Source: Actinomycetota bacterium
GTDB lineage: Bacteria; Actinomycetota; Actinomycetes; S36-B12; UBA5976
Assembly: GCA_009885745.1 (NCBI GenBank)
Contig: VFKC01000042.1
Coordinates: forward strand, 11,555 to 75,554
DNA: 64,000 bases
Direction of reading: 5' to 3'
The notes beneath the pieces were generated by a model, which did not search any database, had not been told where the DNA came from, and saw only the letters and a list, made by a program, of their open reading frames with translations. The position numbers and the translations under genes were made by a program. How positions within the stretch are numbered: the stretch's first letter is position 1; each line of letters begins with the position of its first letter. Of the stretch, positions 12,076 to 62,309 are shown piece by piece.

Positions 12076-12143
12076 AGGGTTTAAGGTCCTGCAATCAGTT
12101 AGTCCACGCCAGTTTTTGTGTGAGTCAAAACAAAGGAAATATC

Positions 12144-15100
12144 ATGCAGATTTCACCCAAAGCCACTATCAGCACACTTTTAACTATTCTTTTGTTGATT
12201 TCAGGAGTTGCTATCCCAAACAGCGCCACAGCAAAGACAAATGTTGCCGATAGGGACCTAGCCGCAGAAGTAACAAGTGACGCGATTGTTACAGCGATTA
12301 CTCCAGAAGCTGGAAGTGGAATTGACAATATTTATATCAGTTGGGAATCTGAAGGTACTGACCCAATTTTTTCCGAAGAAGATCCGGATAGCGATCCTCT
12401 TCCATCTGCATATTTTGTCGTGACCGTTGAAGGTGGCGGCTTTGCCAAGTGTGATAGCTCGCTTCCAAATGTCGGTACACATGAAATGGCATTTGACGAG
12501 ACAGGTGACGTTACTTGTCGTGTTGGTGGCCTAGAACTTGATCGAACTGTCGCAATTACGGTGACACCTTTTATCGCTGCTCAAAATGAAGATGAAGTTG
12601 ATGCGATGGGGACATCATTTACGACGGAGTACACAGCCATAGAAGAACCTAATGCCCCAGCAGTCACTGCAACAGTTAGCTCCGCGCGAGAAAGAATCAC
12701 AATTAACTGGACCGCTGGCGCGAATTCTGATGCGGTGAACGGTTGGCGAGTAGATACAGGCGATTTAACCGTAGACGGGGCAGGCACTTGCACATTTTGG
12801 GATGAGAGTTTTGACGACGATACCCAAGAAACGATGTATACCGATACTGGCGAATCATTAGATCTAAACGAAAGTTCATGCTATATCCCGAATGATAACT
12901 ATGATTCTGAAGCGGCTTACGCAATTGTTGTAACACCCATTTACGGTGATTCATTTTTAGCCGGTCCCTTTGGAGCGACATTTATTGGCGCAAAAGCCTC
13001 GGCAACTCCGGGCTTTATCACTGATTTCAGTGTGGCTACCTCTGGCGCAAAAGCAGCAAAAGTTTCGTGGAAAATTCTGGGAATGGCTGGGGCACCCGCA
13101 CTTACCTCTCAAACTGTCAGTGCATTTGACCCGGAAGATACCAGCGATGAGCCTCAAGTATTGGATAAGTGTCTTTTACTTAAAACAACGGATCGTACCT
13201 GCACGCTTACCAAACTCGTTGCGGGCAAGAACTACTTAGTAATCGTGACTGCTGAGAACGAAAATGGGCCAATTGACAACACCGCTTATCCATGGAGTTT
13301 TTACACTCATCCGGTTCCGCCTGACGCACCAAAAGATTTTACCGCAACTGATTACGGAACTGAACTGGTATTCGATTGGAATCCAGGTTGGAATGGTGGC
13401 TCAGCCCTAACTAAATACACTTTGACCGAAGTTGGATCCAACACTCCTGTTTGTGGAACTATTCCTGGCACAGCCATATCTTGTGTGTTCAAGGGAACTA
13501 GTCTGACCAAATCCGAGTACAACTTTGAGTTGATTGCAACAAATGGGTCAAGCTTTAGCGAGCCAGTTACCACCGAGTTTTTCCCGGTATTTCCTGAAGC
13601 AGTATCTAACATTGCTGTTTCGATTACAGGCAAGACCACTGCGGATGTTGTGTGGACTTCAGCATTAGATGCAGCTTCGTATGAAGTGACAGTTAACGGC
13701 AAGGTCGTCGTATGTCCAGAGATTGAAGAGCCGGAGATTGAAGATGAGAGCCAACAAATAGATCCAGATCTTGAACCAGTTGAAGAGCCAATCTCAGACC
13801 AAAACATCTGCACTATTTCAGATTTAGTTTCCAAAAGGACCTACACAATTGGCGTGCAGTCTGTTCGCTGGAATGCCGAATCTGCGATTACCACGACTTC
13901 ATACGTTCACCCATCGGGTCCAACAGTTGGGGTTAGTGTTTATGAAATTGGCGCGAATGGTCGATCCGCAATACTCGAGACAATCGTTGTCAACGAAAAC
14001 AATAATCTTGCGACCTCTTACGTAATCACAACTCAAAATCTGGCCGATGATTCAGTTGTGGACACTCGGGATTGCCCAGAAACACTTTGTGTAATTGAGG
14101 GGCTTTTACCTGGTAACAAGTACAAGTTCTCCGTGGTTGCATCCAACATAGCTGGCTCTTCAACACCGCAGTCCGTCATCGCTACTATGCCAAGCGTGCC
14201 ATCATTTCCCGAAGCCGTTGAAGTACAGGCCACTGCCCCGAACACTGCTGAGGTAACTTGGGGCAAAGTGAAACGCGCTAATTCTTACCTAATTTCTGTG
14301 ACGAACAATGGGCAGACCCAAACTTTCAACACTCAGGAAAATTCAATCAGCATTGATGTGGAAAGCGCACAGACTTACTCAATTTCTGTCGCGGCGATTA
14401 ACGCCGTTGGTCAAGGTCCAGAATCAGCAACAATTAATTACACGCATCCACTTGCACCAGTTGCACCCACTGCAATCCGAGCATTTAGCGAGTCGCTTAC
14501 CTCGGCACTCGTAACTTGGACTGCGAGCAATTCAAAAAATGGTGGACCAGTTGATAGTTACTTGGTTCAGGCCTACTTTAATGGCGAGCTGGTTTCTAGT
14601 TGCCAACCAACAAAAGCGACAATATGTTTACTTCCCGGACTTGAGAGCCAAATCTATGACATTCGGGTTACCGCACAGAATGTCATCGGTACCAGCCCTA
14701 CAGCAAATTATTCATATCAGGCTCCTACTGCCCCTAGTGCGCCAATAGTGTCAGCCGAGGCTTTGAAAAATGATATGTGGAAATCAGCCAAGATTGCCTG
14801 GCGCGTCACTGAAACAGGTGGGCTGCCAATCAAATCGATAACTATCAGTGCCAAAAGCGGCCAAGAGAATGTCAGCATCTCAGGCTCTTGTAGCACTCTG
14901 GCTGTAATGGCATCCGATTGTGTTTTAACGGGTCTAACCGCCGGCAAGGAATATCAGGTAAGTGTGACTATCGCTAATAGCGCCGGCCGGACAACGTCGG
15001 AGACTTCGGTCAAAATCCCGGACACTCCAGCGCCAGTAACCAACATATTGGCAACTCAAACAGATGCAGACAGCGCAAACATCGTGTGGACAAAGTCTCA

Positions 15101-18100
15101 AAATGCTGAATCTTATTCGGTGAAGGTATTGGACATCGATGGTAAGGCAGTGAACTGCATCGGTGGAAATATCACCTACCAACCAACTTGTTTGCTGGAT
15201 GGACTTAACGGCGGTGAGGCGCATTCAATTTCAGTGATTGCTAACTCAAAGGGCATCGGCCAGAGCATTGAGGCGTTTTCTTCATACACTCAGCCAGTTA
15301 TTGTAAACCAATATCAGATTTCCGCCGAGGTCAATCCGGTTAATACCTCAATCCTCAATCTATATTTCACAGCCTTAGACTCAAGCGGTTCAAGTGTTCT
15401 TCCTAAGCCCAATGTGTTCGTGTATAAGATCGACGGAAGCACTAAGGAGCTCATTTGCACAACAACTTCCCTTGGTACCACATGTGAAATGCAGAACCCT
15501 CTCTCACCTGGTGACATTGTTGGAGGAACTTATACCATTGCCGCAAGAGGCATAAAGGCCAATGTTCAAAAAATCCGTGCTATCCGATCGGTAGTAGAGC
15601 CTCCAGCGGAAGATTCTGGTTCATTCAATATTTTGATTCCACTTCCAGCCACCGAGGTTACAAATCTAGATGTGGTTTCACTTTCTCCAACTTCAGCTCT
15701 GGCTTCTTGGGATTCAATTGAAGATACAAGTGTGACTTATGACGTCACAGTTGATGGAAACCTAGTTTGCGAAGACATCACCGAGGCAGAGTGTGAAATC
15801 GCTAACGAACCTGGTGCCCAGTCAGTGATAGTTTCAGTTACAGCGAAGAATCTAACGGGCGAATCAAGCCCCGTCACATTTGATTACGCTGCGCCAGAAA
15901 TGCCAAAGGAACCAACGGACATTGTTTTCGAGACTAATAGCTCGGGATCCATGTTGACCACTTGGTCCGATGAAGCAAATAGTGTCGCTACTACTTACTC
16001 CGTCAAGCTCGATGGTGAAATAATCAGTGAGTGCATCGACCTCGTAAATCCAGTCTGTCTTGTTTCCAATCTTGTGCCAGGTGGCCAGTACCAAATCACA
16101 GTAATCGCTAAGAATATTCTTGGATCCGCCGAAGCCAGCGCCGCACTGGTACAGCCGCTACCCGCAACTGCCCCAATCGTGCAAGCGGAGGTATCTGAAG
16201 ATGGAACTTCTATTCATTTCAGTTGGCTAATTCCTGATACTGGTGGGGCAAAACCTACTGATATCGAGATTCGACTTAACCCCAGCCAAGGAACAACCGG
16301 ATGTTCTGAAATTGACGTGGAAGCAAGTTCCTGCGATCTTGAGGGACTTGTTGCCGGCGTGAACTACACATTTGCTGTTCGCTTGGTCACCGAAGTTGGT
16401 GCAGGTTCATTTGGGTTTGCTTCTGCATCAGCTGGAGAATTACTGGAGTCTCCCGAGAATGTGTCTATTTCTCGGATTGGCGATAATCAGGCTTTCATTA
16501 CTTGGGACGGCTTAGAAAGTGCTGATAGTTACCAGGTTTATGTCAATGGGGAACTAAATGATGTTTGTTCAACTTCAGAAACAAGTTGCACAATTGACAT
16601 CGATGCCACCGAGCCTCTAACAGTAATGGTCTCAGGTGTGAATAGATTCAGTACCAGCGGACTAGCAAAATCTGCCTTAGCGGGGCGCACAGTCATTGGA
16701 CCCAAGCGGGTGGTAGCAGTTTCGAGTGCTGATGGTCGTTCCGTGCTCTTAAGTTGGAAAGCAGACCTAACGACAGCGTCCCAAGAAGTTGAATACGCAG
16801 CTGCAACAGGCATTGCTGGGTGTAGCGATTTAGCGGCATCAACTAGTTCATGCACAATTACTGGCTTAACCCCCGGCACTTCATACTCATTCGTGCTTCG
16901 CACTTATGATGCGGATTCTGTGCTTAATGAATCCGAAGTTATTGCCAACACAAAGGTGCTTCCAACACCTAAGGCTGCTTCGGGATTGGCTGTCGCACTG
17001 GTTAAGAAAGTTGCGACACTAACTTGGGTTTCTTCAGTTGCTCAGATTACAAACAAGGCAGCGCTACCAACATATAGCGTGACACTAAATGGCAAGGCTG
17101 TTAAGTGCAAGATTGAGGCAGCAACGCCATCATGTGCTCTCGGCAAACTTGCGGGCACAGCCAAATATTCGGCAAAGGTCACGGCCAAACTCGGCACAAA
17201 ATCTGCTGTATCGAAAGAGTTCAAGTTCACCGCAAAGTCCGTTGCTAAGGTCGGATTCTTAACTTCGAAGCTGACTACAAGTGGCGCAACTCTTACTTGG
17301 CAGGACCTTCCAAAGATGAAGGCAAGTGCAATTACGGTGGCAGTTTCGCCAAAGGCAACTGGTTGCAAACCAGTGGTTGCCACTGCCAAGAATTGTGCCC
17401 TAACTGGATTGGTCCCTGGAACTTCATACACAGCCACAGTGACTATCAAACATAAGAAGGGTGCGGCAACGAAGATTGTCCGCAACTTTGTCGCTCCCCC
17501 AGCACTATCGGCACCTGCGGATCTTGATGTGCAACTAACCGGTGACAACCAAGCTCGTGTTTGGATCACTCCAGGCTTCGATTCAGTCGGAAGTAGCTAT
17601 GTGTGTTCAGCAACTAACAAAGCACTCACCATTACATTTGATGCGACAACTACCAGTTGCTTGATTTCTAACATCTATTCGGCAACTGTTGCTGATGTTT
17701 CAGTTTATGCAAAGAACGGTGCAAGCAAGAGTTCGCCAAGTTCCGTTACTTGGAAAGCTCCTACAGCGCCTAGAGCAGTTACTGATTTAGAAGCAAACAT
17801 TAAATCAGGATTTGTCACCGTGTCTTGGCTACCAAGCACTAGTGGCAACCAGAACATTACTGGCTACCGGATTACTTCAGCGAAATCTGCTTCGGTTGTT
17901 GTTGATGCAACTACCTTCAGCCGAAAGATTGCTGTTACTGGGGTAACTCCTGGATCTGATGTGACCTTCATCGTGGTGGCATTGAGTCAAGTTGGTGATG
18001 GTACCACTGCAAATGTGATTGCCACGGCACTTGCCCTACCATCCACTGTAGATTCAGACACTATTTTAGGTGACTGGACTAGTGCTTCTTCGGCCACAAT

Positions 18101-18338
18101 TTCTTGGCAGAGCGTTGAATCTAATGCTGACTATGAAGTAAGTATTTCAAGTACCGGTAGTAGCACTACGAAGGCTTGCGAGACTCATGCAACAGCATGT
18201 TTGCTAACCGAGTTGTCGAAGAATAAGGACTATACGATCACAGTGACCGCAATCAATGCAGCGGGATCCACTACTAGTGCCACAGTCATCTGGCATCAAG
18301 GTGCCTCCAATGATGATTCAGAGCTAACGGCTCCATAG
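12144..18338 (+). CDS. giant secreted/surface protein of about 21 tandem fibronectin-type-III-like repeats
   Basis: 6.2-kb ORF. ATG 12144 has an AAAGGA SD and a Sec-type signal (MQISPKATISTLLTILLLISGVAIPNSATA). Roughly 90-100-aa repeats each carry a W early and a Y-x-[IFV]-x-V-x-A-x-N-x-x-G-like tyrosine-corner motif late. The ORF-track start GTG 12120 is less likely. Confidence 0.85.
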   Translation: MQISPKATISTLLTILLLISGVAIPNSATAKTNVADRDLAAEVTSDAIVTAITPEAGSGIDNIYISWESEGTDPIFSEEDPDSDPLPSAYFVVTVEGGGFAKCDSSLPNVGTHEMAFDETGDVTCRVGGLELDRTVAITVTPFIAAQNEDEVDAMGTSFTTEYTAIEEPNAPAVTATVSSARERITINWTAGANSDAVNGWRVDTGDLTVDGAGTCTFWDESFDDDTQETMYTDTGESLDLNESSCYIPNDNYDSEAAYAIVVTPIYGDSFLAGPFGATFIGAKASATPGFITDFSVATSGAKAAKVSWKILGMAGAPALTSQTVSAFDPEDTSDEPQVLDKCLLLKTTDRTCTLTKLVAGKNYLVIVTAENENGPIDNTAYPWSFYTHPVPPDAPKDFTATDYGTELVFDWNPGWNGGSALTKYTLTEVGSNTPVCGTIPGTAISCVFKGTSLTKSEYNFELIATNGSSFSEPVTTEFFPVFPEAVSNIAVSITGKTTADVVWTSALDAASYEVTVNGKVVVCPEIEEPEIEDESQQIDPDLEPVEEPISDQNICTISDLVSKRTYTIGVQSVRWNAESAITTTSYVHPSGPTVGVSVYEIGANGRSAILETIVVNENNNLATSYVITTQNLADDSVVDTRDCPETLCVIEGLLPGNKYKFSVVASNIAGSSTPQSVIATMPSVPSFPEAVEVQATAPNTAEVTWGKVKRANSYLISVTNNGQTQTFNTQENSISIDVESAQTYSISVAAINAVGQGPESATINYTHPLAPVAPTAIRAFSESLTSALVTWTASNSKNGGPVDSYLVQAYFNGELVSSCQPTKATICLLPGLESQIYDIRVTAQNVIGTSPTANYSYQAPTAPSAPIVSAEALKNDMWKSAKIAWRVTETGGLPIKSITISAKSGQENVSISGSCSTLAVMASDCVLTGLTAGKEYQVSVTIANSAGRTTSETSVKIPDTPAPVTNILATQTDADSANIVWTKSQNAESYSVKVLDIDGKAVNCIGGNITYQPTCLLDGLNGGEAHSISVIANSKGIGQSIEAFSSYTQPVIVNQYQISAEVNPVNTSILNLYFTALDSSGSSVLPKPNVFVYKIDGSTKELICTTTSLGTTCEMQNPLSPGDIVGGTYTIAARGIKANVQKIRAIRSVVEPPAEDSGSFNILIPLPATEVTNLDVVSLSPTSALASWDSIEDTSVTYDVTVDGNLVCEDITEAECEIANEPGAQSVIVSVTAKNLTGESSPVTFDYAAPEMPKEPTDIVFETNSSGSMLTTWSDEANSVATTYSVKLDGEIISECIDLVNPVCLVSNLVPGGQYQITVIAKNILGSAEASAALVQPLPATAPIVQAEVSEDGTSIHFSWLIPDTGGAKPTDIEIRLNPSQGTTGCSEIDVEASSCDLEGLVAGVNYTFAVRLVTEVGAGSFGFASASAGELLESPENVSISRIGDNQAFITWDGLESADSYQVYVNGELNDVCSTSETSCTIDIDATEPLTVMVSGVNRFSTSGLAKSALAGRTVIGPKRVVAVSSADGRSVLLSWKADLTTASQEVEYAAATGIAGCSDLAASTSSCTITGLTPGTSYSFVLRTYDADSVLNESEVIANTKVLPTPKAASGLAVALVKKVATLTWVSSVAQITNKAALPTYSVTLNGKAVKCKIEAATPSCALGKLAGTAKYSAKVTAKLGTKSAVSKEFKFTAKSVAKVGFLTSKLTTSGATLTWQDLPKMKASAITVAVSPKATGCKPVVATAKNCALTGLVPGTSYTATVTIKHKKGAATKIVRNFVAPPALSAPADLDVQLTGDNQARVWITPGFDSVGSSYVCSATNKALTITFDATTTSCLISNIYSATVADVSVYAKNGASKSSPSSVTWKAPTAPRAVTDLEANIKSGFVTVSWLPSTSGNQNITGYRITSAKSASVVVDATTFSRKIAVTGVTPGSDVTFIVVALSQVGDGTTANVIATALALPSTVDSDTILGDWTSASSATISWQSVESNADYEVSISSTGSSTTKACETHATACLLTELSKNKDYTITVTAINAAGSTTSATVIWHQGASNDDSELTAP

Positions 18339-18355
18339 TCAGTGACTCAAAATAG

Positions 18356-18402
18356 ATGGTGGGTCTGAGGGAAATCCTTAGGCCCACCATTTTGATTTTT
18401 TT
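18356..18402. terminator. bidirectional rho-independent terminator between the giant gene (+) and the LuxR gene (-)
   Basis: 15-bp stem atggtgggtctgagg / ccttaggcccaccat (two G-U pairs), 5-nt loop, then TTTGATTTTTTT. There is an A-rich run on the other side. Confidence 0.85.
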
Positions 18403-18428
18403 CGCAAGCTTGGTCGCAGATTGTGGGG

Positions 18429-19205
18429 CTATTGACCATTTACTAAATAAAGGAAGGTAGCCGCATGATTTCTATTTCGGGCTCCAATTCGCTCATAAAG
18501 CTTTGATGTTTCAACCCGGATTGTTCCCAAACTCAAATGCATCATGTCGGCTAATTCCTGGTTGGTTAAACCATCAGCGATACCTTGCAAAATGACCTTT
18601 TGTCGCTCTGACAGACTTAATCCTGCGACATCTCGCACCTCGGTAATTCGGTGAGAGTTTTGCGGTGCAAAGCCATTATCTTTATGGTTCGGATCATTTA
18701 TCAGGCCAAATTGATGATAAATAAATTCGGCCGCTACCCGAAGAAACATCACCACATCATGTGAAATTAGTTTCTCCCTAGGAGCATGCGAACTAAAAAC
18801 CAAAAGCCCATCTCGATGATTTTTCTGACCCAGCGCCAGGCAAAAGGTGGAACCGAATTCTAAAACTGCATCCTTCAAAGCAGACCATTCTGGATGGAGC
18901 AGCAGTAACTCTACTAAATCTTCATCTTTACTAAGACTGTTGCTCCCAAGAATTTCCGGCATCATTGATATCACATCAGGTAACTCAAGAACTGCTTGAT
19001 AATCCTGATGTCCACAGCTTGCAACTAAATCCCAATTCATCTTTTGCGATAACGCAAAATAAGCAATGGAAATATCTAATTCGCGAATGAGCGGATGGCT
19101 CGAAGTCCAACGCAACAGGGGCGTTAGTGACATTCCAGTGTTTGGGACACGGAGCAACCCACGAACTTCATTTAAGAATTCTCTGTTCGTATCCTGTTCA
19201 TCCAT
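18429..19205 (-). CDS. LuxR-family transcriptional regulator (C-terminal GerE-type HTH, uncharacterised about 180-aa N-terminal sensor-like domain)
   Basis: C-terminus LSERQKVILQGIADGLTNQELADMMHLSLGTIRVETSKLYERIG matches the LuxR_C HTH pattern. ATG 19205 has a GGAAGG SD 6 nt upstream. Confidence 0.75.
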   Translation of the reverse strand: MDEQDTNREFLNEVRGLLRVPNTGMSLTPLLRWTSSHPLIRELDISIAYFALSQKMNWDLVASCGHQDYQAVLELPDVISMMPEILGSNSLSKDEDLVELLLLHPEWSALKDAVLEFGSTFCLALGQKNHRDGLLVFSSHAPREKLISHDVVMFLRVAAEFIYHQFGLINDPNHKDNGFAPQNSHRITEVRDVAGLSLSERQKVILQGIADGLTNQELADMMHLSLGTIRVETSKLYERIGARNRNHAATFLYLVNGQ

Positions 19206-19344
19206 CAAAATCCTTCCGCACCATAAGCAAAAATCAAATGAACTTTTGCGTGAATGATATTTTTATGATGATAACAACACTCTTTTAAACAACACAATAT
19301 AAAGACTTTATCTATCTGATGCTTACTGATTCCCAGATATCGCT

Positions 19345-19356
19345 AGTGCTAGCACT
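19345..19356. promoter_or_regulatory. perfect 12-bp palindrome AGTGCTAGCACT upstream of the LuxR gene
   Basis: Read directly. It lies in the AT-rich 217-bp gap between the ABC permease stop and the LuxR start. Operator role is speculative. Confidence 0.2.
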
Positions 19357-19425
19357 CATACATAAACAACAGGGTAGATTGCGCTTTCTGATGGTATTTT
19401 CGAGATCCTGAGAATACACGGGTTG

Positions 19426-20217
19426 TTAGTTGGTTACATCTCGCCTTTTGAAGAGCCCCGCGGCTGTCACCGAGCCAATAAATATGTAAAGCAAGGCAAT
19501 AGTAAGCGCCCTACTATACGAGTTATTCAGTGAACCACCCGTGGCTACTGCGCTCAATTGCATACCTGGAAGCCATTTATCAGCATTTTTTACAACAGCG
19601 CTTAGAAGATTTTCTACAATAAGCAACCAAATCACACCAATGGAAATAGCGGTGATTGGCGAGCGCAGAATTAATCCCAGAATCATTCCTAATGTTCCAA
19701 AACCTATAGTGGAAAGCAACGCATTTCCAAGAGCATGAGCTATTGCCAATTTGCCGTGCGATGACGTCCAAAGTGCGGTAGACACTTTTGCATCCGCTGC
19801 CAACGCAAATGATAAACCGATACTTACAACTGCTGAAGCCATGACAATAACAAAGGCAAAAATACTCATCGCTACATACTTGCCTAAAAGAATTCTCATT
19901 CGACTAGGTTCCCGAAGGAGTAGGTTGCGTAAAGTTCCGTATGTATATTCTTGCGCTGTTTGGGCGGCAAAGACACAAAGCGCAATTACCCCGAGTAACG
20001 TTGCAGCACTCTGAAAACTGTAAACAACTCCATTAGATAGCGAGAGTTGCTCTGCACTGACCCTGACACCCTCACGACCATTGCCAGACGGCGAATCGAT
20101 CAGTAAGTACAGCAAAGACGTTGTCAGCGCCGTCAAACCCATAGCGGCGAACAAAGTAGGTAAGGCTAATGTTGGGCGGCGCAGTTTGCGGGTTTCGGCT
20201 CTAAGAACTTTTATCAC
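19426..20217 (-). CDS. ABC-2 type transporter permease
   Basis: 263 aa with about 6 hydrophobic segments. EYTYGTLRNLL motif is typical of ABC-2 permeases. 4-nt overlap with the upstream ATPase gene. Confidence 0.8.
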   Translation of the reverse strand: MIKVLRAETRKLRRPTLALPTLFAAMGLTALTTSLLYLLIDSPSGNGREGVRVSAEQLSLSNGVVYSFQSAATLLGVIALCVFAAQTAQEYTYGTLRNLLLREPSRMRILLGKYVAMSIFAFVIVMASAVVSIGLSFALAADAKVSTALWTSSHGKLAIAHALGNALLSTIGFGTLGMILGLILRSPITAISIGVIWLLIVENLLSAVVKNADKWLPGMQLSAVATGGSLNNSYSRALTIALLYIFIGSVTAAGLFKRRDVTN

Positions 20218-21125
20218 GCTTGCCCCCCGGTCATATCGAAAAAAGTTTCTTCGAGTGTTGGCAGCACCGGTGTTAAAGATTGCAGAGTGATTCCAGCGGC
20301 GAAAGCTAATCGATTAATTTCGGAACTTAAATTTTCTGGAACTAAGACATGCAAAACACCATCTTTGATTTCGACAGTATGCCCTGCAGATTGGATTTCT
20401 TCCATAAGGCGGTCTGAATCAACCTCAAACTCTGGTTTAACTAAAATTTGTGATTGTTGAGCCTCGAGTAGATCAGAGATGAGCCCTGAGAAAATTACTT
20501 TACCTTCGCGCAACATAACGAGATATTCGCTGATCATCTCCAATTCGCTTAATAGGTGAGATGAAACAAAGACTGTAGTGCCGTTCTCGGCGAGTTCGCG
20601 TAACAATGTGCGAATTTCATGGATTCCTGCAGGGTCAAGACCGTTAGTGGGTTCATCCAAAATAAGTAATTTCGGATCCGGTAAAAGAGCTGCGGCAATG
20701 CCTAGCCGTTGCTTCATGCCTAAGGAATAATTCTTGAATTTGGAGTTTCCTCGACCAGTCAAGCCGACTGTATCGATTAATTCCATGACTCTGCTGCCTG
20801 GAAAGCCACCCAGTGTCGCCAAAACGTGTAGATTCTCTTCGCCAGAAAGTGCAGGATAAAACGCTGGGCCTTCAATCATGGCACCGACTTGCGCAAGGTA
20901 TTTTTCTGGGTTGTTGATCGAGTGCCCGAGTACAGTTGCAGACCCAAAAGTTGGCTTGATTAGGCCTAAGAGCATCCTGATTGTTGTAGTTTTGCCAGAG
21001 CCATTTGGTCCAACAAACCCACAAATTGTGCCAAGCGGGACTTCAAAAGTCGCATCTGAGACTGCAACTTGCTCATCATATTTTTTAGTCAAGTTGGAAA
21101 CCGAAATTGCTATTTCATACACCAC
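20214..21125 (-). CDS. ABC transporter ATP-binding protein (ABC-2/DrrA-like exporter subfamily)
   Basis: Walker A GPNGSGKTT, signature YSLGMKQRLG, Walker B LLILDEPTNGLD. Confidence 0.9.
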   Translation of the reverse strand: MVYEIAISVSNLTKKYDEQVAVSDATFEVPLGTICGFVGPNGSGKTTTIRMLLGLIKPTFGSATVLGHSINNPEKYLAQVGAMIEGPAFYPALSGEENLHVLATLGGFPGSRVMELIDTVGLTGRGNSKFKNYSLGMKQRLGIAAALLPDPKLLILDEPTNGLDPAGIHEIRTLLRELAENGTTVFVSSHLLSELEMISEYLVMLREGKVIFSGLISDLLEAQQSQILVKPEFEVDSDRLMEEIQSAGHTVEIKDGVLHVLVPENLSSEINRLAFAAGITLQSLTPVLPTLEETFFDMTGGQA

Positions 21126-21191
21126 TAATGCCTAACTCTTTTGCCCCGTCGCAAATTTGGAAACTGTTGATTTAGGAAACTCTTAACAAGA

Positions 21192-22415
21192 TTAAAGTTC
21201 GTCAATGATGTGGCGATTTGCCCGATCAAAAGTGAGATAGTTCCAGGTCCAATCAGCCATTGTGCCAATCTTGTTTCGGCCACCCAGCAAATAGAAAATG
21301 TGTAACCATAACCAAGCCAGCCAGGCCAAAGGGCCCGATAGCCTGAAGTTTTTCACTTGAACAACGGCCTTGTGCCGTCCAATTGTCGCCATTGAGCCCT
21401 TGTCACGATATACAAATTTCTGCGCTTGTTGACCAGAACCGATTGACTTAATCTGTTTTGCCACCCATTTACCCTGCTGTAATGCCACTGGAGCAACCAT
21501 CGGATACATTCGCCCTTCTTCATCAACCGCACCACCGACATCGCCAATTGCCCAGACGTTTGGATGTCCAGCGACTTGTAATGTGGAACCCACAACAATG
21601 CGTTCGCGATCGATTGGTAGATTCAAATTGTGAATAACTGGGGCTCCCTTGACGCCGGCTGCCCAAATCGTAATCGGTGAAGAAACTGTGGTGTCATCCC
21701 CCAAAACAATCTCACTGGAGCGTACTTCCTTAACCGCAGTATCGACCAAAACTTCTACTCCAAGTTTCTCAAGGTCTAATTTTGTGCGAGCTGAAAGCCT
21801 GGGATCAAACGAAGGTAAAATTCGTGGGCCTGCTTCAATTAAACGTATGTGCATTCTGGCAGCCACTTGTGGCTCGTCATTTTTTAATGGCCCTCTAATG
21901 AGTTCGGCGATGGCGCCAGCCATTTCCACACCCGTTGGTCCACCACCGACAACAGTCAACTCGCAAGTTGCTTCATCATCGATTCGGCATAATCTTTCAA
22001 ACTGACGCATCACAGTCGCCCGAATAGTTAAAGCTTCATGAACGCTCTTCATACCAAGGGTGTTCTCAGTTACTCCCGCAACACCAAAATCTGCCGTGGC
22101 CGAACCCAAAGCCACAATAAGGTGATCAAATCCAAGTACTTGACCACTGTCAAGAGTCACGGTTTGATTCGCATGATCTACCGAAACCGGCGAGCCCATG
22201 GAAAACTTAACACCAGTGCCCCGCAGTGCCCCTCGAATTGGGTAGGCCACGTGATCAGCTGCAAGTCCAGCGGTTGAAACCTGATATAACAGAGGCAAAA
22301 ACGTCTGAAAATTATGGCGATCAACGAGCATGACATCTGCATACTTATGCAGAGACTTAGCAGCTGTGAGGCCACCGAATCCAGCTCCAAGAATTACAAC
22401 ACGAGGCCTAGACAA
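21192..22415 (-). CDS. ndh: type II NADH dehydrogenase (NDH-2)
   Basis: 407 aa. Two dinucleotide folds (VVILGAGFGG, VVGGGPTGVE). TTG start with a GGAGGA SD. Confidence 0.85.
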   Translation of the reverse strand: MSRPRVVILGAGFGGLTAAKSLHKYADVMLVDRHNFQTFLPLLYQVSTAGLAADHVAYPIRGALRGTGVKFSMGSPVSVDHANQTVTLDSGQVLGFDHLIVALGSATADFGVAGVTENTLGMKSVHEALTIRATVMRQFERLCRIDDEATCELTVVGGGPTGVEMAGAIAELIRGPLKNDEPQVAARMHIRLIEAGPRILPSFDPRLSARTKLDLEKLGVEVLVDTAVKEVRSSEIVLGDDTTVSSPITIWAAGVKGAPVIHNLNLPIDRERIVVGSTLQVAGHPNVWAIGDVGGAVDEEGRMYPMVAPVALQQGKWVAKQIKSIGSGQQAQKFVYRDKGSMATIGRHKAVVQVKNFRLSGPLAWLAWLWLHIFYLLGGRNKIGTMADWTWNYLTFDRANRHIIDEL

Positions 22416-22523
22416 ACTGTTTCCTCCATTTAGTTACCTGTAAAGACTAGCGTTTATTAAGAATTTAGCACTATCTTGAGCATCTGAGTCGGTTTTGTGC
22501 TCGCTTGACCTAAGGTAGGGGCT

Positions 22524-23495
22524 ATGCAGGCACCGACGCGCACAAACATTGCTGGTCATCATGACTTAGTAAAACCAGTAATGAATCTCGGACCCACACT
22601 AATTCTGCCGGTGATTCTATTTTCTTTTGCTACTCAAACGACAGCTTTTTCACAGAAGATACCCGCATGGACTATTACATTCGCTGTGATTGCGTTGGCA
22701 CTAGGCACTCCACATGGAGCTGTCGATGACTTAGTACTCGCTAAGAAAACTCCAGCAACCACCTTGCTCAAATTGGCAATTATCTACACCTCTATTGCAG
22801 CTCTGTCAGCAAGCGCAATCTTATGGAAACCGGCAACTATGTTTCTTGGCGTTTTAGTAATGACTATCTGGCACTTTGGTACTGGTGACGTTCAAGCGGC
22901 TTCAGAATTACTTGGTCTAAAAGTAAGCAGTGGATTCAGATACTGGATACATGTGCTTGCTGCAGGCAGTGTCCCAGTGTTGTTGCCGCTAACCTCTCCA
23001 GCCGCAATTTCAACCCTACGTAGTATCCAGCCGAAATTAGCCCAGTCTTTTTCTTCGTATGCAACTAACAATGTTCGAATGGTTGTCCTTCTGATCGCCT
23101 TTGTGTCGCTAGTTTTTCACCTCCTTGGAAACAACATCAGAGGAGCAATCGAACTGAGCACTTTGATTGCGCTCGGCCTTGTGGTCGCTCCATTGCTAGC
23201 CTTTGCTACTTACTTCACTTTTTGGCACGCCACTAGACACACAGCCAGACTTGCATTTAGTGCGCATGGCCAAGTGACACGATTGTCAATGTCCAAGGTA
23301 TTCATCCACGGTTTACCCGCTTTAATGGCAATCAGTGCAGTCTTGATCTGGCTCCTGACAAGGGACTCCTTACTCTCATCAATTCACCAATGGCTTTGGC
23401 TAGGTCTGGCAATCACCTGGGGATTGACAGTGCCACACATGATTGCTGTTGCATACTTTGATCGTTCTTCACGAAAAGGGCTGAGGCGCTCATGA
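22524..23495 (+). CDS. blh: beta-carotene 15,15'-dioxygenase, Brp/Blh family (retinal synthase)
   Basis: Polytopic membrane protein carrying the family His motifs GTPHGAVD, IWHFGTGD, FWHATRH (H-x3-H) and TVPHMIAV. Start is uncertain; an in-frame ATG at 22581 is possible. Confidence 0.85.
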   Translation: MQAPTRTNIAGHHDLVKPVMNLGPTLILPVILFSFATQTTAFSQKIPAWTITFAVIALALGTPHGAVDDLVLAKKTPATTLLKLAIIYTSIAALSASAILWKPATMFLGVLVMTIWHFGTGDVQAASELLGLKVSSGFRYWIHVLAAGSVPVLLPLTSPAAISTLRSIQPKLAQSFSSYATNNVRMVVLLIAFVSLVFHLLGNNIRGAIELSTLIALGLVVAPLLAFATYFTFWHATRHTARLAFSAHGQVTRLSMSKVFIHGLPALMAISAVLIWLLTRDSLLSSIHQWLWLGLAITWGLTVPHMIAVAYFDRSSRKGLRRS

Positions 23496-23803
23496 TTAAG
23501 TCTGTTCTGATTCGTCAATTGTCACCTTTTGAACATGTCGTACTGCTGAAAATGTGCGCCGGACACTCAAATTTCGCAATCGCTAAGGAAACAGGTCGTT
23601 CGATAAAGGTGATTGAAAACACACTTAGTAGAAGTGCTCGTGCATTTGGCATAACCTCCCATTTCGATAGCAACATCCGAATTATTTTGGCGCTGGCCTA
23701 TCGGTGCAAATTTGGAGACGAAGCGGCCGTAAGTTTTGGGTATGAATGTGATTGTTCACAAATTGAGGTCAACCAAACCTGCACTTTAAAAGTCAGTGTC
23801 TAG
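23492..23803 (+). CDS. small stand-alone GerE/LuxR-type HTH protein with Cys-rich C-terminal tail
   Basis: 103 aa. LSPFEHVVLLKMCAGHSNFAIAKETGRSIKVIENTLSRSARAFGI fits the LuxR_C HTH pattern. ATGA overlap with the blh stop. Tail Cys at residues 72, 86, 88 and 97. Confidence 0.6.
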   Translation: MIKSVLIRQLSPFEHVVLLKMCAGHSNFAIAKETGRSIKVIENTLSRSARAFGITSHFDSNIRIILALAYRCKFGDEAAVSFGYECDCSQIEVNQTCTLKVSV

Positions 23804-23837
23804 TATTTTTAAAACAACATAAGCGCATTAAGCCCGA

Positions 23838-25328
23838 TTAGGGTGCAGTCTGAATTTCTTTCTGCTTATCTAACTTCTTAGCAGCTGCTGTGATATTACG
23901 AACCATTGAACCAAAAACAAAGCCATGAAATGGCCAAACTGAGAACCAATAAAGGTGTCCCAATAATCCCTTTGGATGATAAGTAGCACGTTGATGATAT
24001 TCAACTTCGCCATTCTGGTCATGACGAACTTCTAAGTCGAGCCAAGCAAGCCCAGGCATCTTCATTTCTGCCCGTAAACGCAGTAACTTCCCACGCTGAC
24101 ACTCTTCAACTCGCCAAAAGTCCACAATTTCGCCCACTAACAGGCTCTTTGGATTTCTGCGTCCCCTTCTAAGACCTGGCCCGCCGAAAATTCGATCAAT
24201 TAAACCCCGAGTTTCCCAGGCAAGTGGGAATGAGTACCAACCATTTTCCCCACCTACTGCCTCAATCACTTCCCAGAGCGACTCTGCTGTTGCACTTGCA
24301 CATGCCACGCGATCATCTGTGTAAAGAGAACCACCAGCCCAATCGGGGTCAGTAGGTAAAGGGTCACTTGGTGCACCTTCGACCGATGCTGAGGACCATC
24401 GAGATGTGACATTAGCCTGTTTGACTCTTTGCAGAGCCAACCCCACAGCCTGCTCAAAACTCAATAACCCCTCAGGCGGATCTGGAATGAACCGTTTAAT
24501 GTCATCCTCAATGCAAATAACTTCCGACTTCAAACTATCTACTAGTGGTCGCGCTATGTGTGCTGGTACAGGTGTCACTAGGCCGACCCAGCGACTGGAT
24601 AACTTCGGGGACAAAATATTAATGGGCAAAATAATACGACGACGTAAGCCAGCCACTTTTGCGTAACCCTGCATCATTTGCTCGTACGTCAATACATCAG
24701 GTCCGCCGATATCAAATGAACGATTGATCTCCTTGGGGATCTCAATTGCCTCAGTCAAATAGCGAAGTACATCTCGAATGGCAATCGGCTGGATCCTGGT
24801 CCGAACCCAACGTGGAGTAATCATTGCTGGCAAACGTTCAGTAATGTATCGCAACATCTCAAAGGACAAACTTCCAGAACCGATAATCACCGCGGCACCA
24901 AAGGCAATTGTGGACACACCAGAGTTGAGTAGAATTTCGCCAACTTCGGCGCGTGACCTCAAGTGAGCAGAAAGTTTCTCATCATTTTGCAAACCACCTA
25001 AATAGATGATCCGCGAAACGCCCTGATTCTTGGCAGCCTTGGCAAAAATATTGGCTGTATCGCGTTCAATCTTTTCAAAATCACCGCTACTTCCAATTGC
25101 GTGAATCAGGTAGTAGGCGGTACCAACACCTTCAAGCGCTTTGCTGACAGTCGCCTCATCTTCGGCATCTCCAGCGACGATGTCGACTTGATCACGCCAC
25201 GGATGTTGCGCCACACGCTCGGGATGGCGCACCAACACTCGTACTGAATACCCTTGTGCCAGTAGTCGCGGAACCAAACGTCCACCAACATAGCCAGTAG
25301 CTCCAGTTACCAGAATCAAATTACTCAT
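23838..25328 (-). CDS. NAD(P)-binding SDR/NmrA-like oxidoreductase fused to a C-terminal DUF2867-like domain
   Basis: N-terminus ILVTGATGYVGGRL Rossmann motif. 496 aa. The C-terminal domain assignment is from memory of this family architecture. Confidence 0.65.
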   Translation of the reverse strand: MSNLILVTGATGYVGGRLVPRLLAQGYSVRVLVRHPERVAQHPWRDQVDIVAGDAEDEATVSKALEGVGTAYYLIHAIGSSGDFEKIERDTANIFAKAAKNQGVSRIIYLGGLQNDEKLSAHLRSRAEVGEILLNSGVSTIAFGAAVIIGSGSLSFEMLRYITERLPAMITPRWVRTRIQPIAIRDVLRYLTEAIEIPKEINRSFDIGGPDVLTYEQMMQGYAKVAGLRRRIILPINILSPKLSSRWVGLVTPVPAHIARPLVDSLKSEVICIEDDIKRFIPDPPEGLLSFEQAVGLALQRVKQANVTSRWSSASVEGAPSDPLPTDPDWAGGSLYTDDRVACASATAESLWEVIEAVGGENGWYSFPLAWETRGLIDRIFGGPGLRRGRRNPKSLLVGEIVDFWRVEECQRGKLLRLRAEMKMPGLAWLDLEVRHDQNGEVEYHQRATYHPKGLLGHLYWFSVWPFHGFVFGSMVRNITAAAKKLDKQKEIQTAP

Positions 25329-60815: not shown

Positions 60816-62309
60816 TTAGCCGTTGGTTGGGAAACCTAGGTTTATTCCACCGTGGCTTGGATCAAGCCAGCGACTGGTAACTACTTTGCCGCGAGTGAAA
60901 AAATGTACACCCTCGGCGCCATGGGCATGAGTATCGCCAAATAATGAAGATTTCCAGCCGCCAAATGAGTAATAAGCCATTGGGACAGGAATTGGCACAT
61001 TGATGCCAATCATGCCAACTTCTACTTCATTTTGGAACCGTCGCGCTGCGCCACCATCGTTGGTGAAAATCGCAGTTCCATTTCCGTATGGATGATCATT
61101 GATGAGCTTTAATCCTTCGTCATAAGTTGCAACGCGAACAACTGATAAAACAGGACCGAAAATCTCATCCGTGTAAATGCTCATATCGGTTGTTACATTG
61201 TCGAACAAAGTTGGTCCAATGAAATAGCCCGCACCATCGCTATCGGCAATCACATCACGACCATCAACAACAATTGTTGCTCCTTGGGCCACACCTTCAT
61301 CAATGTACGACTTGACCTTGTCGCGATGGGCTGCAGTTACTAATGGGCCCATATCGCTATCACGCGTACCGTCACCCGTGCGAATCTTGGAAACACGTTC
61401 AGCGATTTTTGCAACCAGCGCATCTGCGATTGGCTCAATGGCCACCAGGGCTGAGATTGCCATGCATCGTTCACCCGCTGATCCGAAACCGGCGTTTACC
61501 GCAGAGTCTGCTGCCAAATCTAAATCAGCATCGGGCAGAACAAGCATGTGATTTTTTGCACCACCAAGTGCTTGCACTCGTTTGCCGTGTGCAGTTCCAG
61601 TTTCGTAAATGTATTTTGCAATCGGCGTTGATCCAACGAAGCTAATGCTCTTTATGTCTGGATGTGTGAGCATCCGGTCAACGGCTTCCTTGTCGCCATG
61701 GATTACATTGAAAACGCCATCAGGTAAGCCCGCATCTTTCCACAATTGTGCGATGAAGTTTTGGGCCGAGGGATCTTTTTCACTTGGCTTGATGATCACG
61801 GTATTTCCCGCGGCTATCGCTATAGGGAAGAACCACATTGGCACCATCGCCGGAAAATTAAATGGTGAAATTACGCCGACAACTCCGAGAGGTTGACGGA
61901 TGCTGTACACATCAACCCCAGTAGATACAGATTCACTAAAACCACCCTTGAGAAGGTGAGGTATGCCGCAAGCAAATTCAACAACTTCTTGACCACGAGA
62001 GATTTCACCAAGTGCATCTGAAAGCACCTTGCCGTGCTCGGCGGTAATGATTGCCGCTAGTTCCTCTTTGCGTGCATTCAGTAATTCGCGGAAGGCAAAC
62101 ATGATGCTCACGCGCTTGGTGATGGAAGTAGCCGCCCAGTCAATGCTTGCTTGCTTTGCGACAGCAACGGCGTGGTCCATTAGCTCTGTATTGGCAAAAT
62201 CAACAGTGCCCGATTGCGCGCCAGTTGCTGGATTAAATACTGCTCCAGTGCGCTCGGCCATTCCTGACCATTCCTGGCCACCAATCCAATGGGTGATGCG
62301 TGTGCTCAT
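60816..62309 (-). CDS. mmsA: CoA-acylating methylmalonate-semialdehyde dehydrogenase
   Basis: 497-aa aldehyde dehydrogenase with an MmsA/IolA-like N-terminus (ITHWIGGQEW) and catalytic Cys region GERCMA. AGGAG SD. Confidence 0.8.
   Translation of the reverse strand: MSTRITHWIGGQEWSGMAERTGAVFNPATGAQSGTVDFANTELMDHAVAVAKQASIDWAATSITKRVSIMFAFRELLNARKEELAAIITAEHGKVLSDALGEISRGQEVVEFACGIPHLLKGGFSESVSTGVDVYSIRQPLGVVGVISPFNFPAMVPMWFFPIAIAAGNTVIIKPSEKDPSAQNFIAQLWKDAGLPDGVFNVIHGDKEAVDRMLTHPDIKSISFVGSTPIAKYIYETGTAHGKRVQALGGAKNHMLVLPDADLDLAADSAVNAGFGSAGERCMAISALVAIEPIADALVAKIAERVSKIRTGDGTRDSDMGPLVTAAHRDKVKSYIDEGVAQGATIVVDGRDVIADSDGAGYFIGPTLFDNVTTDMSIYTDEIFGPVLSVVRVATYDEGLKLINDHPYGNGTAIFTNDGGAARRFQNEVEVGMIGINVPIPVPMAYYSFGGWKSSLFGDTHAHGAEGVHFFTRGKVVTSRWLDPSHGGINLGFPTNG

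Follow-up and report, generated by a model that had tools for sequence, protein, structure and literature searches.

The 64,000-nucleotide stretch of Actinomycetota DNA analyzed here (contig VFKC01000042.1; hereafter the window) carries, directly behind the retinal synthase gene blh, a gene (23492–23803, + strand) whose 103-residue product is a stand-alone helix-turn-helix (HTH) protein, assigned by indirect evidence to the LuxR_C type. It represents a blh-linked subgroup of a family that extends throughout the acI/Nanopelagicales. The explanation that accounts best for our observations taken together, and which we hold with moderate confidence, is that a stand-alone LuxR_C family using a palindromic operator has had one of its members relocated behind blh, where it would act on the gene of a 259-residue regulator. 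The blh-linked gene would thus belong, as a relocated member, to a family of miniature LuxR-type proteins found across the lineage, and would not be a special regulator of retinal formation. The family as a whole gains a candidate operator (GAGTGC-NN-GCACTC) and a candidate sensing module in the form of a Cys/His-containing tail; its predicted targets are the 259-residue regulator in the window and, elsewhere, a protein with two transmembrane segments, the cyd operon and a cytochrome-b cluster.

The small open reading frame (ORF) is conserved as a gene and subject to purifying selection. Homology searches returned 16 clusters with the single sequence as query and 1,749 with a profile of the family, and tblastn against the GTDB species genomes gave 426 matches, nearly all of them in metagenome-assembled genomes or isolates of acI/Nanopelagicales. 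The ratio of nonsynonymous to synonymous substitution rates (dN/dS, Nei-Gojobori) of the HTH gene against three relatives is 0.27–0.36, with core and tail each below 0.4, a coding-type conservation that an earlier note made from the DNA letters had asked for in this ORF. The same note had described the product as a mini GerE/LuxR protein, a description that stands for the family and its fold while the window copy itself misses the GerE model: there is no match of the window protein to Pfam GerE (PF00196, gathering threshold 23.5 bits) at E-values up to 0.1, and 66 of the 75 aligned family members match it at E-values up to 0.01, the best with 2.4e-6. The family profile, searched against the PDB, recovers the DNA-binding domain of LiaR (E-value 1.2e-4) followed by VraR, ComA, DosR, NarL and GerE. 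An exhaustive search with Hidden Markov Models (HMM) yielded approximately 40 representative clusters below 1e-10 and then many proteins of 200–220 residues matched at their C-terminal end; two such remote matches (215 and 223 residues) were checked against Pfam and both have GerE at the C-terminal end. Labels found on family members in the databases are "LuxR C-terminal-related", "NarL/FixJ" and "CsgD family", and a near-identical protein is named "DNA-binding CsgD family transcriptional regulator" by JGI. Other assignments of the small protein were rejected: sigma-70 region 4 (Sigma70_r4_2, 13.9 bits and E-value 0.044 versus a cut-off of 25.7, with no accompanying region 2), SigH (about 15 bits versus NCBIfam cut-offs above 200), and the NCBIfam entries BglJ and FixJ, with sub-threshold matches of about 15 bits only.

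The structure predicted with AlphaFold2 from the 75-sequence alignment comprises a four-helix HTH core (residues 12–74, encoded by 23525–23713 on the + strand) with helices at residues 12–22, 27–34, 38–51 and 62–74; the predicted local distance difference test (pLDDT) score is 94–97 over residues 11–50 and 79–87 over residues 51–70. Nearly all of the 50 top Foldseek matches are LuxR_C domains (target-normalised TM score 0.75–0.9, root-mean-square deviation 1.2–2.5 Å), the best being the DNA-binding domains of LiaR, VraR, DosR, NarL and GerE, with a target-normalised TM score of about 0.8 and a deviation of about 2 Å. The third helix, residues 38–51 (KVIENTLSRSARAF), is the predicted recognition helix; its K-V-[IV]-E-N-T-x-S-R signature is nearly invariant throughout the family, and the invariant residues are intact in the window copy. 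A receiver domain (Response_reg) gives no match in the 103-residue protein, in which the HTH begins as early as residue 12. Because of the family-level Pfam matches, the profile match to solved domains and the similarity in fold, the small protein is most reasonably described as a divergent stand-alone LuxR_C/GerE-type protein lacking a receiver domain.

The family is widespread, and often present in several copies, in freshwater acI Actinobacteria (Nanopelagicales). Its members, numbered here by locus, occupy several recurrent gene neighborhoods. In the most frequent one (context A, approximately 45 loci) a short-chain dehydrogenase/reductase (SDR) gene and an enoyl-CoA hydratase gene on the opposite strand are followed by the HTH gene, a membrane protein gene, ino1 and PadR; the membrane protein, of about 190 residues with two transmembrane segments and no Pfam match, is the commonest neighbor of the family (62 loci). 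Context B (23 loci) has the HTH gene divergent from a cluster encoding cytochrome b, an unassigned 318-residue protein, DinB, an MpaB/Lcp-type oxygenase and a LigB dioxygenase, and in context C (four loci, L009, L014, L025 and L049) the HTH gene lies directly upstream of cydA, cydB and cydCD. Context D (five to six loci, among them L057, L029, L039, L070 and L072) consists of TauE, the HTH gene and the two-transmembrane protein, followed about 3 kb downstream of the HTH gene by a CruF-like carotenoid gene (PF04240) and a glycosyltransferase gene (e.g. L057, 9118–11000); apart from the blh-linked copies, nothing else in the family hints at a carotenoid neighborhood. A tail-less distant member (P0016; L094, 524–2489) precedes a 71-residue zf-CDGSH protein and a pyridine-nucleotide disulfide oxidoreductase (dimerisation domain). 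Some genomes have two HTH copies, as seen for L009 and L025, which lie about 8 kb apart on JAGWWW010000024.1. In most genomes the family gene is transcribed separately and adjoins the two-transmembrane protein gene, the cytochrome-b cluster or the cyd genes.

The association with blh, on the other hand, is confined to one lineage. Five versions of the pair were found, all closely related and with Blh identities of 82% or more: the window, L082–84 (HTH protein 86% identical to that of the window), L001/L091 (HTH 68%, Blh 83%), L081 (HTH 67%) and L093 (HTH 64%). Identities among the Blh homologues run 100, 83, 71 and 71% and then drop sharply to 49% or less. Both loci at 71% (L085 and L087) have no HTH gene and no visible remnant of one in otherwise identical synteny, sharing the gene order ndh2, blh, SDR-DUF2867, DUF998, DUF4328 and PNP; the longer L085 also keeps the gene of the 259-residue GerE-type regulator and the ABC genes upstream of ndh2. 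At the place where the HTH gene would stand, blh ends 6 bp from the stop of the convergent SDR gene in L085, and the two genes overlap by 4 nucleotides (nt) in L087. Three more distant acI blh loci have unrelated genes, and no HTH gene, 3' of blh, and among the family loci in GTDB species genomes blh was present within 6 kb at L001 only and absent from the vicinity of the other 79 of 80. A scan of metagenomes with the Blh alignment returned a single locus, at 45% identity and without the HTH gene; the blh–HTH lineage is rare in the collection scanned. Conservation of the small ORF 3' of blh, as anticipated in the earlier note, is therefore a property of the clade with Blh at least 82% identical and does not extend to L085, L087 and the more distant loci. 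Since the family occurs across acI in other gene neighborhoods, its link to retinal synthesis appears to be recent and narrow.

Such a clean presence or absence between sister lineages would also be expected from a neutral event, in which a copy landed between blh and the convergent SDR gene of a streamlined genome and is read from the blh promoter, piggy-back or already decaying, with no functional tie to its neighbors. In line with this, the blh-linked proteins form the longest and most divergent branch of the family (51–54% identical to the other members, which are 58–73% identical among themselves), the dN/dS of the HTH gene is above that of blh (0.10–0.16 against relatives, Nei-Gojobori), the window copy falls below the GerE HMM, overlapping genes are common in the window, and the L082–84 population has lost the tail to a premature stop (see below). 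However, dN/dS is well below 1 in core and tail alike, the family-invariant residues of the recognition helix are intact, the junction overlap and the ORF length are kept down to 64% identity, and the palindrome described below is conserved as a footprint in two lineages that bear the HTH gene. We therefore judge a neutral or decaying copy unlikely.

The junction between both genes (23483–23495, + strand) is contained in the sequence GCTGAGGCGCTCATGATTAAG at 23480–23500. A Shine-Dalgarno-like GAGG (23483–23486) stands 5 nt 5' of the ATG of the small ORF (23492), and the stop codon of blh (TGA, 23493–23495) overlaps this start within ATGA (23492–23495), exactly as first noticed. The junction of the relatives reads TAATG, a 1-nt overlap, and the stop/start overlap is kept in one of the two forms in all five related versions. 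Among the co-directional adjacent ORF pairs of the window, 11 of 41 (27%) overlap likewise, nine by 4 nt and two by 1 nt, and many of these are functionally unrelated genes; the blh–HTH overlap is thus the local norm and says little by itself. An overlap frequency of this order fits a compact, streamlined genome. A consensus scan for internal promoters and terminators around the pair gave nothing above shuffle expectation on the + strand.

The presumed promoter of both genes is the divergent intergenic region between ndh2 and blh (22416–22523, no strand assigned). This 108-bp spacer is strongly conserved between the window, L001, L081, L082 and L083, and the HTH-less L085 shares this conservation. 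It is near base-for-base identical across lineages in which Blh is only 71% identical, a conservation far above that expected from the nearby synonymous divergence (dS about 0.9–1.3). No inverted repeat was found in 22380–22560, and a search of Rfam over 18300–24000 gave as its sole match a chance microRNA (E-value 0.17), hence no structured RNA. An operator at the blh promoter was rejected, as the best match to the family palindrome there has 4–6 mismatches, which is background, the region lacks an inverted repeat and it is equally conserved in the HTH-less L085.

These observations bear on the model of the earlier note, in which an HTH protein produced at a constant ratio to Blh serves as a dedicated regulator and couples the supply of retinal to the expression of blh, opsin or carotenoid genes, its Cys residues sensing retinal (an aldehyde), redox state or a metal. 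The overlap conserved in five versions and the Shine-Dalgarno-like GAGG before the ATG would suit such a regulator, as would the carotenoid genes downstream of the HTH gene in context D and the retention, in full-length blh-linked members, of all four Cys of the tail. Yet the pair is confined to the clade with Blh at least 82% identical, with syntenic sister contigs that have no HTH gene; neither the 79 other family loci nor the three blh loci farther removed show the pairing; the promoter region of blh contains no palindrome and is conserved to the same degree where the HTH gene is missing; overlaps of this kind join more than a quarter of the co-directional pairs of the window; and one natural allele lacks C97. 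Moreover, no opsin or crt gene occurs among the ORFs of at least 90 residues in the 64-kb window, where the candidates with multiple transmembrane segments turned out to be transporters (one ZIP, one AI-2E). The interpretation given in the earlier note is thus supported in part, but its dedicated regulator is not supported and in our estimation very unlikely to be correct; the blh–HTH link looks like a recent arrangement of a narrow lineage and not like a dedicated chromophore switch.

A different target is suggested by the upstream regions of the family, in which a 14-bp palindrome, GAGTGC-NN-GCACTC, co-occurs with the small HTH genes. Allowing up to one mismatch, 33 sites were found in 784 kb of loci, and for 30 of them an HTH gene is no more than 400 bp away. 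In context B the palindrome is located about 56 nt before the HTH start, with up to two mismatches in 19 of 23 upstream regions, and in context A it occupies the spacer between the HTH gene and the two-transmembrane protein gene (up to two mismatches in 29 of 43 downstream spacers); as a background, this level is attained by only 2.2% of 200-nt pieces drawn at random from these loci. No conserved palindrome was found upstream of the HTH gene in context A, the sites there being downstream, before the membrane-protein gene, where tandem copies (A/T)AGTGC(C/T)AGCACTC spaced 27 bp apart occur in L035 (6320–6370) and L056 (6350–6390). In context C the palindrome precedes the HTH gene in L014 and L049 and occurs again before cydA in L049. 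The nearly invariant recognition helix fits an operator shared by the whole family, and we propose GAGTGC-NN-GCACTC as the candidate operator of the small HTH proteins.

No palindrome adjoins the blh-linked HTH copies. In the window, a site with one mismatch (TAGTGCTAGCACTC, 19344–19357, no strand assigned) lies between the gene of an ABC-2 permease and that of the 259-residue regulator (18429–19208, − strand), its proximal edge 136 nt upstream of the start of the latter. This regulator consists of a C-terminal GerE domain (PF00196, 44.5 bits, residues 198–252) preceded by an unassigned N-terminal domain of approximately 190 residues; with the PedR model NF052366 it scores 24.2 bits, below the cut-off of 120. 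A perfect palindrome stands at the same intergenic place in L001 and L091 amid otherwise diverged sequence, a conserved footprint that marks the window site as a candidate operator of the small HTH protein, and L085, which has no HTH gene, keeps the 259-residue gene and has no palindrome. Palindromes with up to one mismatch are in excess in the window (two observed versus 0.14 expected; none of 100 shuffles reached two). The second one (AAGTGCTTGCACTC, 61566–61579) is located within an aldehyde-dehydrogenase gene (60816–62309, − strand) and was set aside as an operator, being intragenic and probably coincidental, like a similar palindrome in L051 (at 9345) within an unrelated membrane-protein gene. 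Since the palindrome of this lineage lies 4 kb away from the HTH gene and in front of the 259-residue gene, the gene of that regulator is the predicted direct target of the window HTH protein.

The palindrome might also be looked upon as the site of a different factor, for example the 259-residue GerE protein or a global regulator, of which the small HTH genes would be frequent targets or neighbors, and it would then say nothing of their own site and regulon. The position of the window site directly upstream of the 259-residue GerE gene is indeed the classic one for autoregulation, and the small HTH protein is a candidate for binding the palindrome by co-occurrence. Against a different factor, however, speak the 79 other family loci, in which no homologue of the 259-residue protein was found, all of which have the small HTH gene and most of which have the palindrome, as well as the proximity of nearly all sites to a small HTH gene in three gene contexts, the near-invariance of the recognition helix, expected for a shared operator, and the joint absence of palindrome and small HTH gene from L085 in spite of its 259-residue gene. 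Taking both sides into account, we find it quite unlikely that another factor owns the site.

Returning to the relocated family member as the preferred explanation, the mechanism would be as follows. A dimer of the LuxR_C-type protein would bind GAGTGC-NN-GCACTC, as other LuxR_C proteins bind as dimers, and in most acI genomes this site would be at the promoter of the HTH gene itself or of its neighbor. In the lineage of the window the copy placed directly behind blh has no promoter or operator of its own nearby, and for this reason it would be expressed from the blh promoter, probably with translational coupling, so that the level of the HTH protein would follow the expression of blh. The direct target would likely be the 259-residue GerE-type regulator rather than blh, opsin or crt genes. 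This wiring could be either selected, making retinal formation and a regulatory cascade respond together, or the neutral result of a relocation in a compact genome.

The C-terminal tail (residues 72–103, encoded by 23705–23800 on the + strand) has the Cys residues reported previously, C72 (in RCKFG), C86 and C88 (in YECDCSQ, C86-x-C88) and C97 (in QTC), to which has to be added C22, overlooked at first. C22 is invariant in the family and more likely structural, as it occupies a small-residue position of the first helix before a conserved Gly, a point that weakens the case for a sensing tail. Alignments of 75 and, for comparisons of the tail, also of 85 sequences indicate that the usual tail of about 30 residues consists of C-x-H, about eight residues with a G-x-D-G turn, and C-x-x-H; conservation across the 75 members reaches 90% or more at C86, H88, C97 and H100 (window numbering). 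Of the four tail Cys, therefore, C86 and C97 alone are family-wide and C72 and C88 are specific to the blh-linked subgroup, which has Cys in place of H88, a hairpin shorter by two residues, the additional C72 and, at the fourth position, a residue that varies (K100 in the window). Exchanges of Cys and His at preserved spacing are typical of metal ligands. The most plausible role of the tail is that of a small module, either metal-binding (Zn-type) or thiol-redox, by which dimerisation or DNA binding would be modulated.

A more far-reaching version would make the whole family an undescribed class of one-component switches for redox state, oxygen or metal in the most abundant freshwater bacteria, in which a Cys/His hairpin with Zn, an Fe-S cluster or haem gates the binding to the palindrome. 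The targets would be respiratory and O2-dependent functions, which may include cytochrome bd, the cytochrome-b cluster, the CDGSH/disulfide-reductase pair and the two-transmembrane protein, and the copy behind blh would co-switch retinal formation and the 259-residue regulator. We consider this version rather doubtful. The acI/Nanopelagicales, which dominate the bacterioplankton of fresh waters, possess very few regulators and are difficult to cultivate, and for these reasons their control of phototrophy and respiration is largely obscure. Should it be true that the tail senses redox state or a metal, the family would represent a compact regulatory device of ecological relevance; if the tail is no sensor, the blh–HTH pair would be an ordinary lineage-specific gene arrangement.

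Several points weigh against the relocated, palindrome-binding regulator with a sensing tail. The palindrome could belong to another factor, such as an autoregulating 259-residue GerE protein, and the contrast between contigs with and without the HTH gene opposes two HTH-bearing lineages to one HTH-less contig. Loci within each context are phylogenetically related, so that site counts overstate their independence; the recurrence of the palindrome across contexts A, B, C and E is the stronger argument. Co-transcription of blh and the HTH gene, predicted from the sequence, has as its sole arguments the overlap and the want of a promoter-like internal site on the + strand. As to the tail, it is modeled as a β-hairpin (residues 88–92 and 96–99) with pLDDT below 50, a value that a deeper alignment, although improving the core, left below 50, which makes a metal or redox role a conjecture; distant family members have no Cys/His pattern; and in the allele of L082–84 codon 92 is changed from GAG to TAG (L082, approximately 1488–1490), with loss of C97. 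Downstream of this stop the sequence still aligns to the lost tail, including the codon of Cys97, and the stop allele is present in assemblies from ENA, Logan and JGI.

The upstream gene is a bona fide Brp/Blh gene (22524–23495, + strand, 323 residues; β-carotene 15,15'-dioxygenase), passing both models with 98.8 bits for PF15461 (cut-off 28) and 117.7 bits for TIGR03753 (cut-off 95.25). The four iron-ligand His noted earlier (H64, H117, H235 and H239) are invariant, together with H305, in an alignment of 17 sequences of 40–83% identity. Its retinal-forming activity is predicted; cleavage of β-carotene to retinal has been demonstrated for another acI Blh, not that of the window (10.1101/367102), and the window protein is 45–49% identical to typical acI Blh. 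Divergent from blh is ndh2, encoding a type-II NADH dehydrogenase-like protein (21192–22415, − strand; PF07992 159.8 bits, NDH2_C 31.4 bits), whose synteny is kept in L001, L085, L087 and L091. On the other side, a convergent gene with Pfam matches to SDR/NmrA and DUF2867 (23838–25328, − strand) bounds the blh–HTH pair. Farther away, an ORF of 2,072 residues (12120–18338, + strand) shows a signal-like N-terminal segment and many repeated modules of approximately 90–100 residues; by eye it resembles a surface protein with fibronectin-III-type repeats, and it is very large for a streamlined genome. From about 10 kb onwards, the cumulative GC skew declines steadily until the window ends.

Among known systems, GerE of Bacillus subtilis is close in architecture, as are other stand-alone LuxR_C-type regulators (PF00196 with neither receiver nor ligand-binding domain): a single four-helix HTH of approximately 70 residues that lacks an N-terminal regulatory domain. 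The small HTH family resembles it in fold (1fse, target-normalised TM score about 0.8) and in profile, most members pass the GerE HMM, and the palindromic candidate site fits binding as a dimer, as for GerE. In contrast to GerE, the family has a Cys/His-containing C-terminal extension of about 30 residues, its window copy falls below the GerE HMM, it is limited to Actinobacteria of the acI/Nanopelagicales type and it has no link to sporulation. The DNA-binding domains of the NarL/FixJ regulators LiaR, VraR, DosR and NarL are its best profile and structural matches. DosR, the actinobacterial hypoxia regulator, binds a palindrome as a dimer, and its role in hypoxia parallels the cyd and cytochrome-b neighborhoods of the family. 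Unlike the NarL/FixJ regulators, the 103-residue protein has no receiver and no histidine kinase nearby, and with its short length any control would therefore have to operate via the tail or via the level of expression.

PedR is likewise a small LuxR-type protein without a receiver domain, the activity of which follows the redox state conveyed by thioredoxin, and hence light (PMC4361706). By analogy, it provides a functioning example, in a bacterium that uses light, of a mini LuxR regulator dependent on Cys. The small HTH protein is not its orthologue: the PedR model NF052366 gives no match at E-values up to 0.1, and the pattern of Cys and His differs. The acI blh loci described by Dwulit-Smith et al. 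(10.1101/367102) encode an active retinal-forming oxygenase and are separated from actR, while their distance to the crt genes varies; the window blh is likewise apart from actR and crt genes. That study reports no regulator next to blh, the term "LuxR" occurring 0 times in it, and in the literature searched neither a LuxR-type gene paired with blh nor this small HTH family in Nanopelagicales is described, in agreement with the earlier note, which knew of no regulator paired with blh. Whereas the blh genes of Dwulit-Smith et al. are usually near crtYc/crtYd, that of the window is placed between ndh2 and the SDR gene with an HTH gene attached. Thus, stand-alone GerE-like regulators as such are known, and what is new is the Cys/His tail, the defined palindrome and the copy attached to blh.

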